From NCBI GenBank assembly GCA_020137815.1, contig CM035352.1, positions 3,596,001 through 3,660,000 of the forward strand: DNA of 64,000 bases, in the 5' to 3' direction. The translations under genes and the position numbers were made by a program. Below are positions 12,503 through 23,679 of this stretch, piece by piece. Source of the stretch: Hormiphora californensis (Eukaryota; Animalia; Ctenophora). Position 1 is the stretch's first letter; the number at the start of each line of letters is the position of its first letter. The notes under the pieces are model-generated. The model saw nothing but the letters and a program-made list of their open reading frames with translations. It was not told the origin of the DNA and ran no database searches.

Positions 12503-14143
<1,641 letters not shown>

Positions 14144-14491
14144 TACGCACGCAGACGCATACTCGCTCACACTCCTATATAATCAAACGCATAAACGGCA
14201 TACACTCCAACCACTGACACATCACCGAAGAGTTATTGCAGACAGACCGAGAGGATGCACCTGTTCTGCACATCTTCACCAAACATGACTAATAGCGTCA
14301 GTGGAATGGCTCTTCACCGGGCATGACATGGCGCCAGTGGGGCCGGCATCTTCACCAAACATGACTAATAGCGTCAGTGGAATGGCTCTTCACCGGGCAT
14401 GGCATGGCGCCAGTGGGGCCGGCAGTGTTGTTGTTTAAAGGACTTCAAGGTAGATGCGTGGTTTTCATTGAGATGGGATAGTTTGTCGAGG

Positions 14492-17400
14492 TTAGGTCTT
14501 GACATGCGCCGTGTTCCAAGTCGGGGCAGGATGCCTGATTTTGTTTGCTTTGCGTAGGAATACTGCAGTTTCCCAGGGGTGGTCCTTGAAGAGGCTTCTC
14601 ATCCGAACCGCATGTAGCTGTGGCTTATTTGTAGACAGATGTTGTTTCCTGATGTCGTCGTACCCTGGACAATGCAATAATACATGTTCCTCGTCCTCCG
14701 TGATTGTCTCGTGTGAGGGAAGTTGAGAGATTAGCAGGAAAGTAAGGTGATCCTCTGTGGTGCAGATAGGACAGGCTCTTTTCTTTATCAGTGTGTCCTC
14801 CGTCCTTGTACTTTCTCTGTATTTTTGTTGCCTTCCCACTTCAATGTTGAATCGATGAGCACTGCATCTCAATCTTGCTATCCATTTAGATAGGTCACGT
14901 TCGAGGTCAAGATATTCTTCTTGATAGAATGATGTTTTCACCACATTGTAAAACTCCATCTTCTTGTTAGTAGTGCGATCCCTGTTCCAAGTGGTGGTGA
15001 ACGTGTCTTCCTTGTTGAGACGGCTCATGGCTAGTACTTGTGTGACCCAGTCAAGCTCCAGTATTTCTTGCTCCTTCAGAGCATAAACCACTAACGGGGT
15101 GGGAGTATCATGGGTGTCACGATTTTCCATGTCTTTGATGCGGTTAAAGTACTTAAGAGCTCCGTTTCCTAGTGCCAGTGTCAGAGGGAGGCGCCCGCAG
15201 TCACCCCACACCGCAACATTGGAGGCCCGGGTGTGTATTCCCAACGCCATCTTGCAGAATGATAGATGCAATCGTTCCAAGGGCGATTTGGCTATGATCT
15301 TCAAATCCAGTGAGTCTTTGCTTATAATTGACTTCCAGGATGTGTGCGGGAGCCATACTTGAGAGCAGTAGCTAGCCACGGGAAGGACTAGTGAGTCGAA
15401 AAGTTTCAGCGCTGTGCGGGGACTTATCGCCGAGAAATCGATTTGTTTCTTTATGGCGAATACAGCTCTGAGGGCTTTTTGCTTGAGCTTAGCTTCATTC
15501 AACTTAAATGATCCGTTGAGAGTGAAGGTTACACCCAGGTAGCAATATGTTTTTGCGGAGGGTATTCTCTGTCCCTTGTATATAAAGCCTTCACTTTCTT
15601 TTAGTTTGACTGCTGATTTGTTGAATACCATGACTTCTGTTTTCTTGAGGTTTACGGAGAGCCCCCATTCCTCACAGTATTCCTCTAGTACATCGATGAG
15701 TCGTTGGAGGCTGGCAGGGTTAAGAGCCATCAGAACCAAGTCGTCCGCCCATAGGAGGTGAGAAATGTATTTCCCCGCCAAGGATGGTGATGAAGAACCT
15801 TCTTCCCTGTTGAGTCTTACCGAGAGCTCGTGTACGTAGATCTTAAAGAGCTCAGGACTTAAAGGGTGACCCTGTTCGGTGCCGATGTTAACCTCTATAG
15901 TCTCTGTGAGCTTACCAAGGAGCTTAATTCTGGCTGAGGAGCCCGTATACATATCCTTGAGTACACCAAAGAACCGGCCACGCACGCCGTATTGATAGAG
16001 TTTATACAGTAGGGCCTCCCTGCACACGGTGTCAAAGGCTTTGGAGTAGTCTACAAACACCGTGTACAGGCGAGATTTTTGCTGGATGTATTTATCTATG
16101 GTTGTCTTCAGGGTTAAGACATGGTCAGCGGTTTGCGCTCCTTTGCAGAAACCTAGTTGATTTGGTAGATCAGGTACTTCAATGGAGCGGAAATCCAGGA
16201 GTCTATCCAGAAGGATCCCAGAGAATAGCTTTCCAAGGTTGCTTGCCACGGCCACGGCCCTGTAGTTGTTAGGATCATACCTACAGCCCTTCTTATACAA
16301 TGGGGTGACGAGTGATTCTTTCCAAGGATAGCACTGATTCTGGAGACATTGGTTAAACAAGTTGGCTGTCGCCTCCATGACTTCTGTACTGCTTGCTTTC
16401 AGGAACTCGTTGGCAATTTGATCCTCAGCTACAGCTTTTCCGTCCTTGAGTCGCCTTGTTACAGCTGCCACTTCTTCTGTTGTAACATCCCTGTTGAGGG
16501 CTTTGTCTAGATCTTCTGGTATGGGTTTGTCACATGTTGATTCCCAGTACATGGCTTGTTCGTTTCCTGAGATGGCGGCTGGAGGGGGCTGTTTGGCGTA
16601 GAGTTTTTTGAAGAACTTACAGAAGTTTTTCATGTCAAAAGCGTCCAGCTTGTTCTCCGAGGGTGCAAAGCTCTTTAACTTCTTGAGGTTTTTCCAGTCA
16701 ATGTTACCATCATCGATGTCTTGGGAGAGTTCTCTGATGCAGCGTCTCTTAGTGTTTCTTACCAACCTTCTGTGATCCTTCTTCGTTGTAAAGAGTTGAC
16801 CCGTGATCGTTCCAGAGGGATTCATACCCGCTCTTTGGGAGATTCTGTTCACCAATTTCCTGGAGGGTAAGCAATGTCTAAACCATGGTTGTTTAGGGAT
16901 GGTTTTTTCTTCTCTTTGACTTCTTTTGATTGGGGTTCTCTTTTTTGAGAGGCACCGTGATGTCAGCTGCCTTTTTGAAGACTCCAACTAGCCTTTGGTT
17001 GAGTTCCATAGTTTCATTGACTGACGAGCAGGATACTTCTTTGATTGCCTTGGCTTCTGCATAACATGCGTTCGCCTTGAAGTGTCGTTTTAAAAGCCTT
17101 CTTATCATCGGCGGTGTGGAGTTTGTATCTGCTCGGGGCTGGGTCTAGGTCGGCCAGAAGTGTTTCCTCGGTGATTTGAGGGCCATGGTATGCCAGCTTG
17201 GTTAGACAAGGACGATGGTCAGAGAAAACGTTCAAGTCCAAGATTTGATAGCTTTTAATCATGGCATGCAATCCAGTCGTCACTGCTGTGTAGTCTACGA
17301 CACTGGATCCATTATATTTCACGCAGGTATATTCTCCTGTAATGTCACCCACACAATTACCGTTCAGGAGAGTAGCGTTCATTGAGGCAAGCAGGTCAAT

Positions 17401-18048
17401 GAGCTGTTTACCTCTGGCATCGGCTTGCCGTGTATCTTTTGAAGAGCGTGATCGGCCTTTTAAGGTTTGGTGAGATCTCGGAAAATCCTCGTGTTCAGAA
17501 GATATTTCAACCAGATCATGGTTCAGAGTATTGGTTCTTGCGTTCATGTCACCACACAAGAGTATCTCGGTGTGTTGATGATTCAGAAGCAGACTTAGGA
17601 GAGATTCCATGACTGATGTCTGGTTACCCGCGTTTCGGCGTTTGTATGATGAGTGGGAGGGAGAGTCGTAAACATTTATCACTAGCAGCGGCGTTTCTCT
17701 ATCACTGCTGTGAGGGCTCAAGTTGACAGCTAAGATGTCCTCATGCCCGGTGAACACCTCCCGTGCTCTCCATCGTGTAGCGATTTCTCTTGCAATTCCG
17801 GTGCATACCCCACCTGACCTGGATTTGTCCCTCAGTTTGTTGTAGCATAGGTATCCAGGAATTGATATTGAGCCCTTAGTCTCTTGGAGGCAGAAAATAC
17901 TTTTTCCCTGCAGTATTTCAAGGAAATCTGGGTCGTCTTGTTTAGGTCCACCTACTGAGCTGCCGTCCTGAATGTTCCAGTGCAAGACTTCGAATGGGAT
18001 ATTCTTCAAGATGCTACGATTCATGGTTGTTGTTTGTGCTGTTGTCAT
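14492..18048 (-). pseudogene. LINE ORF2: AP endonuclease + reverse transcriptase + CCHC, split by two frameshifts near 17075 and 16945
   Basis: APE motifs HWNIQ, FCLQET, GDMNART, VVDYT, SDH; RT motifs YRAVAV, NQLGF, FVDYSKAFDTV, GTEQGHPLSP, WADD, YLGV; C-terminal RLRCSAHRFNIEVGR...C..C...H...C. The linker continues through ORF 16893-17108. Confidence 0.92.
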
Positions 18049-21000
18049 TTGCCCGTCTCCTAGGGAGCAGGCGGCCTGTCATTCTGTCGAGACTGTCTCT
18101 GAACTTGATCCAGAGGAGGACTTTCCCGTAGGCCGTAGTGATTTTCGCTTCAGGCAATTCATTTTGGATTTTCACGTGTGTGTTGAGGGGACCTGGGTGG
18201 CTGGTGAACACTTGAAAATCACCTCCATCTTTTGTTCTTCTATAGTTGGTGATGTAATCTGACATTGTATCACTGAATCGCTGTAACTTGTCCCGAAACT
18301 CCGCGTGCTCGGTGTTTTGAGGCACCAGGGGCAGCGAGAAACACGTTTTGCCTTTTTTGCAAGCAGATCTAATGAGCGCTTTACATTCACCAATCACCTC
18401 CTCTGACTCCCGTCCTTCATGGATGTCCGCATATCCAAGGTGTATGATGATTAGGCCGGGTTTGTAGGATTCGATTTTGCCGAGTATCGTAGTGTCCGTC
18501 GTTGACTTCCCAATGGTTGGACATTTCACTGTCTCGACTTCGTAGCGCTTCGTGAATCTCGCTTTGTCAAAGTCGTTGAAGGTGCCGTCGTGTATGAGGA
18601 GACACTTTTCTTGTCCGATATTAGCTCTCGTGTTTCTCCCGGTATTATCTCTACCGGTACTTCCACCATCAGCCGACTGTTGTTGACTTTGCCTTGTAGA
18701 GGCGGTGGTATTTCTGTTTCTACTAGCTTGTCCGCGGTGGGCTGAATATGTTATGTTTCCCGCGAACCTGCTATTGTGTGAGTGCGAGTTATAGCCGATC
18801 GTTCCTGGTCTTCTATAAGTCTGTCTCGCCTCTTCTGGCTCGATAGTGGGGTTATCTCCTTGGTCGGGTGTATCAGGGCCGCTTTGTCTGGGCCTTCCTG
18901 TTTCGTTGACGCCCCTTTGGTGAGACATTGTTCTCTTTAGGTTTGCAATTTCTTGCTCCATTGCAGATGTCTTAGAGGATAGGGCTTCGTTTTTCTGATG
19001 GAGTTCCTCTGTCTTCCTCATTTGATCTGCTTTGGTCGGATGATTGAGGTCTTCCGAATCCTGCTCAAGTTTTTCTATCTTCTGCGTGAGCTCCTCGATC
19101 GTCCTCGATTGCTTGCTGTTATCCGCCTGTAGTGTGTTAGTTTTCTCTGTTAGGCTCTTAAGAGCCTAACAGAGAAAATTGATAGACATGCTCAATTCGT
19201 TTATTTTATCTGTTTGGCTTGAGCAGGTAGTCTGTAGATTGCTAATAGCGACTTTTAGACTTTCTATGACCTCTTTGAGAATTGAAATTTCCTTGGTGGT
19301 TGTAGGATGTTGCAGTGAATCACGTTTGATCCTATCGATCTCGCTCCCCATGGTGTCTTCGTTCTCAAGGATCGCATCTACACACGCCGTGTTCCTATCA
19401 GTCTCCGATCTTAGCTGAAGAATACTCTTCTCTAGAGTCAGAATCTGTCCGGTACTTGCCCACTCCTCCTTCGATGGACACGTCGTGGGAGCCGCTTGCC
19501 GTGGTGGCGTTTTGATATAGTCGTCCTGCATCTTTGGAGTGTTCTTCATTGGACTATCTGTGAGTTTCTCGCTGGAGTATCTCCTCAGGATTTCCTCTTT
19601 TGTATTCGCTGTTTGGACTTTCCTTTTATCTTTTCTCCTCTCATTATGTTCCTCATTCAGATCAACGTTGGTGGTGGATAGAATCTTTTTGAGTCGTTTG
19701 GTCTGTCTTTTCTTCATGTAGGAAGTGTTTAGGTTGACTTCCCTATCAGTCTCCTCGAGAATGAAGTTGACCAGTTGATACTTTCTGGCATAAGCGTTGC
19801 CTCCCGGCGTGATGCCTAGCTTTTGGAGTTCAGGTTTGACTACTTGATCTCTTAATGACAAGATGAGGAACTCTGTAACAGATTTAGGGGGAGCTTCATC
19901 GTTCTGACAAAACTTCACTAAGGTTTCCTTCAGGAGAGCATGGTTTCCAGGGAGGAAGTTACTCGGGCATATGTTGCATATTTTAAGAAGCTTTATCGTG
20001 GTTTTCTCGTTTGTTGCGCTGGCTGCATTGACCAGAAGTGACTCAAAACTGCATACCCTCGGTGCCTTGGTATCTTCAGCGCCGTCTTCCTCACCGGAGG
20101 CAGTATATTTACTCGTCTCCGCGTCCTTTCTGTCTGTGCTGCTTATTCTATCAGCATCATCTACGGGTTTAGGCATCTCGTTGTCTGGGGTTGACCTGAT
20201 AGATGTCGGTAAACCCTCCGTACCTTTGGTCTCAATAGGTGTAATTGAGCCGGTGGGGTCCTCTCGAGGTGGTAGATCATCATCATCTTTCGGAAATTGC
20301 TCTACAGGGGCTGATCTTACCGGTTCCGAACTGACAGAGATCTCAGGTATCGGTAAAATGTCCGTGCCTTTGGTCCGGATCTCCGACTGGTTAGGGTGGG
20401 CTGGCCCGCTAGGATCCTCTTGCGTGGTGGTCTCTGTCAGGTCATGCCTTTTCTTCTCTTGAGTCGGCAACTGATCTGTAGGTACAAAACAGATAGGATC
20501 CGCTGGCAGTGTCGTCGTCGTCTTTGGGGGTTTCAGCTCGTTGTCCTTCTTGTCGTTTTTGTCCTGGTGTGGAGTTCTGGATTTGTGTTTGGGTACAATC
20601 CAGTAGTGGAAATCAAGTGTGGTGTTTCCGGCTGAGGTCTTCATGGGTCTCACTGCGCTGCTGTGTTTCGGGTTCACAAATACAGCCGATAGTGTGTCCA
20701 TGTTCAGTTCGACAATATTTTTTGTTGATCTGTATTGCACCTTCTGTTCCATTCCTATGTGTAGAACAGTGAGCACATCTTCTTCCGATTGGAATTTGAC
20801 CTCGTTTTCTCTGCTGTACGTTGATGTGATGGTGAGGTGGTTCCATTCACCTCCGCCGATGTTTGGGAAGATGCTCCGACGTTTGGACAGAAGTACAGAT
20901 ATTAGGTCTTTGTAAATCTGGGGACAGTACTCGCAGTCTGTACCGAGATTCAGAGTGCACATGGATGATAGTGTACTGTCTCCGTATCTTTTCATGAGAT

Positions 21001-22653
21001 CTCGACTAATCTGGCCACCCAGAGTGGCAGCGTCAAGGGATTCCTCTAAGTCTGATCCAGAACATTTAAATAGGATTAGTGTGTTTGTTCTAGGGTCATA
21101 TAGGGGTCCCTGGGAGTCGAGTTTTGATCGTGGTGGAGTTTGCACCCTCGGGTTGAGATGAGAGTCGCTTAGGAGTGACTGTGGTGGGTCACTGAGGGTC
21201 CTTCTTCTGTTTAACCGTCCATAGGGGCTGCCACGTCGAGGTGTTCTAAACTGAGGGGTACGGGTGGGATCTATACCGTGATCTTCTTTGACTAGCCTGT
21301 TGCTCGTGGTCGGGGATTGTTCCTCCTGAATCGCCTCGGCACCAATGAGAGTGCTGCTCAGGGCTCCATCAGCCTCACGGGCTCCACCGTAACCGAGCCA
21401 GGACAAGTTGAAACTGATCCCAGGCAGGACCGTCAAAAGAAGCAAGAACACGAGGATGTTGGGCCTCAGTGTGTGGTTTGCGGGTGGTGGGTTAGCTTCG
21501 AATTGGAGTTGTGTTCTGGTGAGGTTAGCACTGTTGGAAGATGGGGAGGGTGAGGGTTGGTGGTGGTAGGTGGGTGTGTCTCACCAAATTGACACCAAAA
21601 TTTCAAACTCGGAGAATTTCAAAAAAAATTATATCATCTGAAAGCGGGTAAAGGACTGATCATTTCGGTATGTCGCGTCAGTTTAATTGATTATCAATTA
21701 ATTAATTATTAATTAATTAGCGACCGTAACATTGGTAACGACCGTAACGTTTCGGTCGTTACAGTGTATTCTATTTAAAATTACACATAAAATGGTCGTA
21801 ACAACCGTAACGTAACGGTCGTTACATATGTAACGACTGTAACGTAACGGTCGTTACATTTGTAATGACCGTAACGTAACGGTCGTTACATTTGTAATGA
21901 CCGTAACGTTTTACTACCGTAATGTTACGGTCGTTACCTAAAATGACCATATTTTGTAACGACCGTAACGTTACGGTCGTTACAAATGTAACGACCGTAA
22001 CGTTTCGGTCGTTACATTTGTAACGACCGTAACGTTTCGGTCGTTACATTTGTAACGACCGTTACGTTACGGTTGCTGTTACGGTCGTTACAAATGTTAC
22101 ATCTCCAGAATGTTCAGGCAGCCACGGCCATACTTTTTGGACTAAGGCTTCAGAATTCAGACAGGAGAAAGTACTCAGTCACAGCTACCGCTGAGTACCA
22201 GTTTCAACTTCGTACGATAACTACAACCGATTCTATGATCGTTCAAAAATGCGTTACGGTCGTTACGGTCGTTACGTCAACGCCAAAAAAAGGCTTTTTT
22301 TGGCATATTATGCATCATAATTCAGCTCAGTGATGCATAATTATCATGATATTTAGTAATTCAGTAGTTCAGACATTTTCTGACAGTTTGGTACAAAAAT
22401 TAACAAAATTGGCCAATGTTTAGGTGGTCTACGGACCTGTACAAAATTTCCAAACTCGAGGTGTCAATTTGGTGAGACACACCCAGGTAGGGAAATACAA
22501 AAATTCCGAACCGGTCAACTCGTCACTAGTAGTGATGCTACTGCACTCCCGAAATGCAAGTTTCCAATCGAATCCAATAATTATGAGGAAAAATGTAGCA
22601 ATCAACACGTATGATGTGTTGCGTGATGACCTTCTACCGAGAAGTTTCTTCAT
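18014..22653 (-). pseudogene. LINE ORF1 (~1230 aa when reconstructed), interrupted by a MITE and by a 21-nt inverted duplication that introduces TAG
   Basis: ORF 19166-21451 is in frame with 18014-19021 across the TAG (48 open codons between them). Removing 21572-22488 joins MKKLLGRR...EFLYFP to TYHHQP...NILVFLLLLTV in frame. SGNH-like C-terminus (CLLIHD...IIIHLGYADI). Confidence 0.82.
21572..22484. mobile_element. MITE with 25-bp TIRs and 4-bp TSD AGGT (Sola-like), with an internal array of GACCGTAAC/GTTACGGTC palindromic repeats
   Basis: AGGT|GGGTGTGTCTCACCAAATTGACACC...GGTGTCAATTTGGTGAGACACACCC|AGGT. A 6-bp TSD reading is also possible, but only the 4-bp reading restores the ORF1 frame. 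Confidence 0.85.
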
Positions 22654-22706
22654 AATGGTAGTTTGATCTTTTCCTATATAGTGGACTGAGTCGCAAATTT
22701 CTTGTC

Positions 22707-22796
22707 GCCTCCGTGGCGCAGCAGTTAGAGACTCTGCTCGCCGCGCGGAGGGACTAGAGGGAGGGAGGTTCGAGTCCCACTCGGGAAAATTTTTTT
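22707..22796 (+). ncRNA. tRNA-derived Pol III unit (SINE-head-like), not a canonical tRNA
   Basis: A-box-like TGGCGCAGCAG (~22714), B-box GGTTCGAGTCC (22767-22777) in a T-arm-like GGGAGGTTCGAGTCCC, and a T7 terminator at 22790-22796; the anticodon arm and acceptor stem are not canonical. Confidence 0.65.
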
Positions 22797-23288
22797 GCGT
22801 GGGTCCCCCTAACTTTTCTTGTTTTACCGAACAGAGGATAGAAATGGGACTCATTATAGGTAGTTATTGGCAGATTTGAGACAATTGCTTAGGTAGCTGA
22901 TGTTTTGAAACCCAAACCTGTAGCCAGAAACTCGGGTGTGACGTCCTTTTTTCTGTTGATTTCCTACACAATCACTGCCGTCGGGACCTCGGAAAAGAGG
23001 GAGAGAGAGGGTCGTGAGAGAAGGTATGGTGATGGTGGGGTAGTAACTGCTTACCGTACAGTACAGACGACCCCGTACCGTCACCAGTACCGAGGAGTTT
23101 TGGAAGGAAGGACGGTCTCGCTAATCAGTAATTATCAGAGTTGGAGTTTCAGGTACCAGTCAGTTCCGGGAAAAGGGTTGGTGTTATGTGATCCCTCTCT
23201 TTTTCCTCTCTCTCCCTTTTATGTTTGTGATGTGACCCCTCTAGTTCGCAAGCAGTTCTCTAGCACTTGTGATACGTGATACCTACGA

Positions 23289-23371
23289 ATCACGTCGTCA
23301 CACTGACGGATCACGTCGTCACACTGACGGATCACGTCGTCACACTGACGGATCACGTCGTCACACTGACG
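23289..23371. repeat. 21-bp tandem repeat x4 (ATCACGTCGTCACACTGACGG)
   Basis: Directly visible, with no spacers. Confidence 0.9.
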
Positions 23372-23679
23372 ATAGGGTGTCACATTTCCGACCAAATTTG
23401 CATTAGATATAGTTAGATAGTACATCTGTAGATCTGTAAAACAATAAAACATAAAATATTTACTTTATTTTCATGTTGCAAATGCTTGCTTGCTTTGCTG
23501 CTTTCATGTCGTACGTGCCATTTCAATGTGGTAAAGAGCAGGGGGGCATTGTTTGTATAAAAACAATTATATATTTTAGTAATAACTTGCACAGTCACAC
23601 ACTATACAACAGTATAATAGTAGTTGCAACAGTAGTTTCATGTGATATAGCACACGTACTTTGTATGAAACCGTTTTCA

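Follow-up and report, generated by a model that had tools for sequence, protein, structure and literature searches.

No part of long interspersed nuclear elements (LINEs) is less well understood than their ORF1 proteins. Esterase-type proteins encoded by the first open reading frame (ORF1p) are known from CR1, L2 and RTEX elements (PMC3905857; PMC5408684), and the one of ZfL2-1 dimerises, binds liposomes and has strongly conserved catalytic residues (PMC3905857). Here we analysed a window of 64,000 nucleotides (nt) of the ctenophore Hormiphora californensis (contig CM035352.1, positions 3,596,001 to 3,660,000; all coordinates below are positions in this window), in which a LINE copy occupies the minus strand between roughly 23186 and 13967; it is made up of a 5' region, ORF1, ORF2 and a simple-repeat tail. 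Its ORF1p resembles that of ZfL2-1 (PDB 4c1b) in its place before the endonuclease and reverse transcriptase, its coiled coil, an Arg-rich stretch, a C-terminal SGNH-like domain and a proposed membrane link (PMC3905857), but it is about four times longer, has lost the catalytic residues and additionally carries a predicted AlkB fold, helical repeats and hydrophobic N-terminal segments. Most likely it represents a modified esterase-type ORF1p that serves as a scaffold with two pseudo-enzymes. Our overall reading, to which we assign a probability of roughly 0.45, is that of a modular ctenophore-type LINE ORF1p of 1.2 to 2.2 thousand amino acids (aa) in which two catalytically dead folds would act as binding modules of a membrane-held ribonucleoprotein (RNP).

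An AlkB-family domain was also captured by a Phalaenopsis Ty3/Gypsy retrotransposon with an ALKBH5-like ORF. In contrast to the LINE described here, where the domain is fused into ORF1 and has no iron ligands, that element is of the long terminal repeat type and encodes, in a separate ORF, an N6-methyladenosine demethylase active in vitro (PMC9289625). Replicases of plant RNA viruses, which are likewise large proteins of mobile elements based on RNA, also contain an AlkB domain, but there most copies are motif-intact and degenerate ones occur sporadically (PMC544882), whereas the inactivity observed here is family-wide. The orthopoxvirus proteins C4, C10, C16, F11 and A51 are a further parallel, being dead dioxygenase folds of a mobile element that are detectable by structure only; these derive, however, from prolyl or lysyl hydroxylase-like enzymes and are stand-alone proteins of DNA viruses (10.1101/2022.11.22.517515; PDB 8ag3). 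An AlkB domain in a LINE ORF1 was not found described in the open literature searched, a coverage outside which subscription journals and Repbase entries lie, and the accessible portions of PMC11203168 and PMC7250577 hold nothing on a LINE ORF1 combining AlkB and SGNH. The architecture of a dead AlkB together with a dead SGNH domain, real and family-wide, is apparently undescribed, and it adds a structurally cryptic family of AlkB pseudo-enzymes that is missed by Pfam, HMMER and PDB sequence searches.

The AlkB-like domain

The segment of ORF1 at 20570..21121 on the minus strand is predicted to adopt the fold of an AlkB-like 2-oxoglutarate (2OG)- and Fe(II)-dependent dioxygenase that lacks the HxD/E motif, the distal His and the Arg pair. 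AlphaFold, run with 25 family sequences among which no active AlkB was included, modelled residues 21-190 with a predicted local distance difference test score (pLDDT) of mostly 78-93; from the single sequence a pLDDT of 31.6 and no usable fold were obtained. Of the homologues, designated here by P numbers, P0105, P0019 and P0125 were left out of the folding alignment as misaligned and P0095 deliberately. A Foldseek search with this model returned E. coli AlkB at the top (E 5.3e-7) and 219 matches at E ≤0.001, and VIA-align superimposed it on ALKBH3 with Z 14.1 and a root-mean-square deviation of 3.4 Å over 165 residues. When VIA-align was applied without Foldseek, FTO (Z 13.5), ALKBH3, ALKBH6, ALKBH7, Ofd2 and AlkB were found at Z 12.5-13.5, and a viral structure library also returned AlkB-like domains. 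The Atlas search with the same domain of homologue P0023 led to PF13532 clusters (score 0.92, 22 of 30 hits), and that with the window's own AlkB segment gave no usable hit. A profile of the domain that was seeded and iterated without the window protein still recovered the latter (independent E value 2.9e-9).

Three observations speak against the assignment to AlkB. NgTET1 (Z 12.4) and prolyl hydroxylases (Z 11.9) follow only one to two Z units behind the AlkB members; Pfam and PDB sequence searches gave no AlkB match (PF13532 in none of 16 members), which leaves the fold possible; and hhalign of the family to P0095 yielded 7.4% only. Because sequence methods give no AlkB match, the AlkB fold rests on predicted models. 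By these models the double-stranded beta-helix is secure, and the AlkB subfamily is likely, with a small lead over other 2OG subfamilies. The sequence-only reading had proposed an AlkB-type double-stranded beta-helix from motif spacing, which structure search has borne out and sequence profiles have not. An AlkB fold that has lost catalysis is, judged from the models, very probable.

As to the catalytic residues, neither HxD/E before the central strand nor R-x5-R on the last strand occurs in any of 19 family members, so that the absence of both, already noted in the sequence-only reading, is family-wide. The His which had been matched there to the distal iron ligand did not hold up, since it appears to be shifted by about five residues from the expected register and is unconserved among relatives; thus, no iron ligand is kept. 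Decay of this particular copy was rejected as an explanation, given that a contig of another copy (X4) differs at two sites of the domain, one of them silent. Positions at which the window departs from the family majority within the domain restore no catalytic residue. Other positions are retained, namely an Asn on the first strand (17 of 19 members), a His in the LHxG strand (15 of 19, counted on the printed alignment) and a His or Gln on the last strand (14 of 19). The two inward His positions could fill or rewire the AlkB pocket. Cluster mates were removed before these catalytic residues, as well as short motifs and hydrophobic segments, were counted.

P0095, a protein of 677 aa, has both HxD/E and R-x5-R. 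It combines a motif-intact AlkB, the only one matched by PF13532 (E 7.8e-21), with a GDSL-like domain in which Ser, Asn and DxxH are kept, and from its sequence it is a candidate LINE ORF1 with two active enzymes. P0105 and P0125 look intermediate on the last AlkB strands. An ancestor with both enzymes active is the simplest reading, not a proven one, and it must be set against it that P0095 joins the tree on a long branch and that the order of catalytic loss is not fixed by the tree. Capture of an AlkB and an esterase whose folds were kept after catalytic loss separates a binding role from an enzymatic one, and with P0095 as a motif-intact comparator the role of the esterase in ORF1p becomes directly testable.

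A decaying relic, or a folded spacer without ligand, is an alternative that would agree with the very low conservation of the domain (two columns conserved at ≥90%), with a minor variant in X5 in which a 707-nt deletion removes part of it, a finding that also tells against our overall reading, and with viral AlkB domains that are sometimes non-functional relics (PMC544882). Such relics are, however, usually lost fast (PMC544882), whereas this domain is complete and foldable in 19 divergent proteins while the adjoining linker varies freely, which makes this alternative very improbable.

The dead AlkB fold might also be a protein-binding or decoy module, or a rewired pocket, directed against host surveillance or repair rather than an RNA reader. 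Orthopoxviruses have exapted several Fe-dependent dioxygenases that are inactivated (10.1101/2022.11.22.517515), and the N-terminal domains of vaccinia C16 match the model at Z 10.2. The pocket residues of its own that the family has kept fit this explanation as well. We nevertheless consider it quite unlikely, since the top structural matches are nucleic-acid-modifying AlkB members, ORF1 proteins as a rule act in cis on their own RNA, and no partner is known.

The ORF1 protein family and the SGNH-like domain

With the C-terminal 383 aa of ORF1 as query, 107 homologous proteins were identified among 1.84 billion representatives. Five of 30 homologue clusters looked up carry names, all of them of the ctenophores Pleurobrachia or Mnemiopsis, and the closest named homologue is from Pleurobrachia bachei (80% identity over 299 aa). 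In long homologues, the AlkB-like domain is commonly followed by the helical tandem repeat, then the coiled coil and finally the SGNH-like domain; among the 19 hits of at least 900 aa, the AlkB-like domain was detected in 15 and the helical domain in 18, in the same order as in the window and by profiles that themselves contain many of these proteins. In two Mnemiopsis gene models, a LINE endonuclease follows the SGNH-like domain, which speaks for a LINE context of the homologues; the Mnemiopsis annotation of family members is hypothetical host protein. The relatives were analysed as proteins only, and their start sites are those of gene callers. Word-seeded homologue searches retrieved nothing for the AlkB-like or SGNH-like part, a profile search found five proteins, three of them new, and metagenome scans with the SGNH-like domain and the reverse transcriptase gave no locus.

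In a tree of 40 SGNH-like domains, the window's family is sister to P0008-P0012 (support 100/99), and P0095 and P0105 branch off outside all others, with long branches flagged as possibly false. Internal duplications were noticed in several homologues: two SGNH-like domains are present in P0059 and P0117 (P0093/P0117), and two helical domains in P0042/P0130.

The C-terminal domain (18071..18610, minus strand) is SGNH/GDSL-like in fold and block order, as far as can be told from the sequence. The family profile matched 11 PDB entries, eight of them SGNH-type by name (best E 0.005), with the ZfL2-1 esterase 4c1b at E 0.062, and P0059 scores above the Pfam Lipase_GDSL cut-off. An esterase-like C-terminus had thus been recognised properly by the sequence-only reading, to which it must be added that this domain is catalytically degenerate too: the window lacks the nucleophile Ser, the catalytic Gly, the oxyanion Asn and DxxH. 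Among 108 sequences, Ser is found in 27, Asn in 16, DxxH in seven and Ser together with DxxH in three; P0083 has the latter combination, which is probably incidental because this protein nests within the dead family. A non-catalytic SGNH fold is likewise found in the OSK domain of Oskar (PF17182; PMC3905857). Pfam matches to PF17182 are weak and below cut-off, with E 4.2e-5 in P0078 and 0.2 in the window. OSK is reported to bind RNA and, unlike the family described here, belongs to an insect host germ-plasm gene.

Reconstruction of ORF1 and its start

The copy in the window is broken by a miniature inverted-repeat transposable element (MITE), by a 21-nt inverted duplication with an in-frame stop and by a frameshift in ORF2, and is therefore dead. 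The MITE (21572-22484, 913 nt) has perfect terminal inverted repeats of 25 bp, a 4-bp target site duplication (TSD; ACCT on the minus strand) and internal palindromic repeats of 32 bp. For comparison, contigs of other copies were available from runs X4 and X5 of organism A and from run X10 of organism B, the latter without coverage at 22502-22855. The organism A contigs, which come from two studies and have depths of 263 and 597, skip the MITE (21567 to 22485, 917 nt, four letters being ambiguous), and organism B likewise lacks it, so among the copies compared its insertion is specific to this one. In its GGG..CCC ends and 4-bp TSD, it resembles Sola2-type elements. On the plus strand the TSD reads AGGT (21568-22488) and produces GT..AG ends, which would allow clean, introner-like splicing from a plus-strand transcript, antisense to ORF1. 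An intron of ORF1 itself was ruled out, as these ends sit on the opposite strand.

The 21-nt duplication (19158..19178) is also limited to this copy: it is absent from X4, X5 and X10, the three of four runs that cover the site, and homologue P0004 is continuous across it. Without the MITE and the 21 nt, ORF1 comprises 1233 codons with zero internal stops, confirming through the contigs of other copies the single frame of about 1230 codons that had been anticipated. The ORF1 indels listed for organism B (9, 9, 21 and 33 nt, and a fifth of net 36 nt) are all multiples of three; the minor X5 variant with its 707-nt deletion is the exception.

The frame of 1233 aa starts at the AUG at 22651..22653 on the minus strand. 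The sequence-only reading had the frame right but overlooked an in-frame AUG 67 codons upstream, at 22852..22854, which is the first AUG of the element; no other occurs in the 533 nt that separate 22653 from the apparent 5' end near 23186. Because no other AUG lies upstream and the X5 majority contig (13 differences, all listed) leaves this one unchanged, ORF1p may comprise 1300 aa.

The hydrophobic N-terminus

Two hydrophobic segments lie upstream of the AlkB-like domain, the first at 22570..22611 (minus strand), short with 14-15 residues and preceded by a basic stretch, the second at 21410..21457 (minus strand). Their best Kyte-Doolittle 19-mers reach 2.05 in the first and 2.20 in the second; in 1000 protein shuffles 2.20 and 2.05 were attained in 3 and 0 cases, and on hydropathy alone bilayer-spanning length is attained within the translated frame. 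The first segment is still hydrophobic under the changes listed for organism B. In the homologues, 19 segments were counted over the 7871 aa that precede the AlkB-like domain, against none over the 11512 aa from there to the SGNH-like domain. The second segment of the window aligns to the start of an amphipathic Trp-containing helix that is conserved in long homologues, most of which show in the region of about 100-250 aa upstream an acidic patch followed by a Cys and this helix. Judged by hydropathy, a multi-pass membrane ORF1p is most plausible for P0105 with seven segments and P0125 with four.

The frame upstream of 22653 contains an antisense stretch (22714..22796, plus strand) resembling an A-box and a B-box and followed by T7, which we take to be an RNA polymerase III (Pol III)-like unit. 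ARAGORN and Rfam made no call on this stretch, and related sequences of higher depth are present in organism A. Its translated footprint recurs in the N-termini of P0023, P0036 (twice) and P0142, a recurrence picked by eye and post hoc, and a profile of the footprint has its best match (E 1.3e-4) among 1223 peptides in the upstream frame of the window. Possibly, these LINEs share it as a conserved Pol III unit in antisense orientation.

This footprint can also be read in favour of a soluble RNP scaffold whose core would consist of the dead AlkB, the helical repeats, the coiled coil and the dead SGNH domain. The N-terminus would then be no more than 5' regulatory DNA in an open frame, and its hydrophobic stretches would be incidental, being either tolerated or removed by cleavage or skipping. 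Further findings favour this explanation or count against a membrane-held particle. At least one segment is present in eight of 12 homologue N-termini of at least 390 aa and absent in four, and two proteins hold 11 segments. Number (0-7), place and sequence of the segments vary, they cannot be aligned, and at 2.4 per 1000 aa they are rarer than in the window's DNA translated in six frames (3.1). In the sister family (P0011/P0012), the proteins as called start about 128 aa before the AlkB-like domain, without hydrophobic segments, and in organism B five of 13 changed codons of segment 1 (a partial list) are synonymous, which shows no clear constraint. Since the segments are unalignable, occur at background rate and are missing in the sister family, and since part of the region is the antisense A/B-box unit, the N-terminal frame may simply be regulatory DNA free of stops, with a peptide that is hydrophobic by chance.

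On the other hand, in the window's family both AUGs lie upstream of both segments, the next Met being located within the AlkB-like domain. Two such segments were not obtained in any of 2000 trials with 120 random codons of local composition, two of ≥2.0 within 120 residues came up in at most 0.1% of random-codon trials, and N-terminal frames are open for 400-800 codons in 12 families. We regard the soluble scaffold as a doubtful but serious competitor. Of the earlier membrane proposal, the presence of the segments within the ORF is upheld by hydropathy and shuffles, whereas conserved, selected anchors are not, in view of the homologues without segments and the background rate. For real membrane anchoring in the window's family the chances appear even.

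Proposed function of the ORF1 protein

In the reading of a membrane-held RNP, we assume an ancestor that would have carried AlkB and esterase in active form, as P0095 does, and in which catalysis was lost with both folds being kept by selection. ORF1p would oligomerise via its coiled coil and package and shield the element RNA, with the AlkB groove and an Oskar-like SGNH surface possibly binding nucleic acid and the helical repeats contacting DNA or chromatin. An N-terminal hydrophobic hairpin would hold the particle on the membrane of the endoplasmic reticulum (ER) or the nuclear envelope, and, with two passes through the membrane, every folded domain would face the cytosol or nucleoplasm; nuclear import and phosphorylation may be under the control of the PY and RxRxxS motifs. 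Retention of the dead folds as binding modules is probable, the AlkB-like domain being preserved at 11-22% identity in 15 of the 19 hits of at least 900 aa, and that nucleic acid is the ligand of the AlkB fold seems an evenly balanced proposition. The isolated ZfL2-1 esterase is reported not to bind oligo-A RNA (PMC3905857), which is unfavourable to an RNA-binding role.

A more far-reaching version appears unlikely to us. Here, an integral-membrane ORF1p would assemble the RNP, anchored by the hairpin, on the ER or inner nuclear membrane, the dead AlkB would recognise and mask methylated bases on the element's own RNA, the dead esterase would offer a second surface, and the helical repeats would dock to chromatin. 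If true, the element would reach the nucleus by way of membranes, which is not known from any LINE, and a membrane anchor as such would directly support the membrane-linked retrotransposition proposed in PMC3905857.

Further features of ORF1p and the element

Just upstream of the AlkB-like domain (21188..21238, minus strand), ORF1p carries the PY and RxRxxS short motifs, the former presumably resembling a PY nuclear localisation signal and the latter, as we assume, a basophilic kinase or 14-3-3 site. RxRxxS was found in 13 of 15 proteins (2.3 expected) and basic-x2-5-PY in nine of 15 (1.3 expected), with patterns that were chosen after viewing the alignment. Downstream of the AlkB-like domain follows a linker (20060..20569, minus strand) that is acidic, rich in Pro and Thr, predicted to be disordered (pLDDT <50) and variable in relatives, with in-frame indels in organism B.

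The conserved all-helical domain (19745..20059, minus strand) consists of two helix-loop-helix repeats of about 45 aa, which were modelled as helical hairpins (pLDDT 88-94) and whose halves align at 94.6%, indicating a tandem duplicate. Pfam and PDB profile searches gave no SAP match, which leaves a SAP fold possible, and the structure-match lists were filled by the AlkB domain; a likeness to SAP/HeH is by eye only. The coiled coil seen earlier was recovered at 18920..19447 (minus strand), where matches are non-specific and to coiled-coil proteins only.

The element as a whole has the hallmarks of a non-LTR retrotransposon, with ORF1 followed by an ORF2 with APE endonuclease and reverse transcriptase, a simple-repeat tail and dispersed copies. 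Its 5' region spans 22654..23186 (minus strand), where the X4 and X5 family contigs end at 23186, and a very high-copy repeat of 21-bp tandem units (23190-23420) lies immediately upstream. ORF2 (14492..18023, minus strand) encodes the endonuclease, the reverse transcriptase and a C-terminal Cys/His motif and is frameshifted near 17000; it matched Exo_endo_phos_2 (E 7e-12) and RVT_1 (E 3e-29) in Pfam, and L1 ORF2p and R2 were the top PDB matches. By its esterase ORF1, C-terminal Cys/His motif and repeat tail, the element presumably fits the RTEX clade. The likely AUG of ORF2 is overlapped by the ORF1 stop by a few bases in a different frame (18014-18023). In the 3' region, a 76-bp tandem duplication (14271-14422) has copies that are 99% identical, and the tail (13967..14140, minus strand) is composed of (GT)n plus three tandem units of 9 nt. 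Tail to tail with this LINE, the 3' part of a second, related ORF2 is located on the opposite strand (12560-13755, plus strand).

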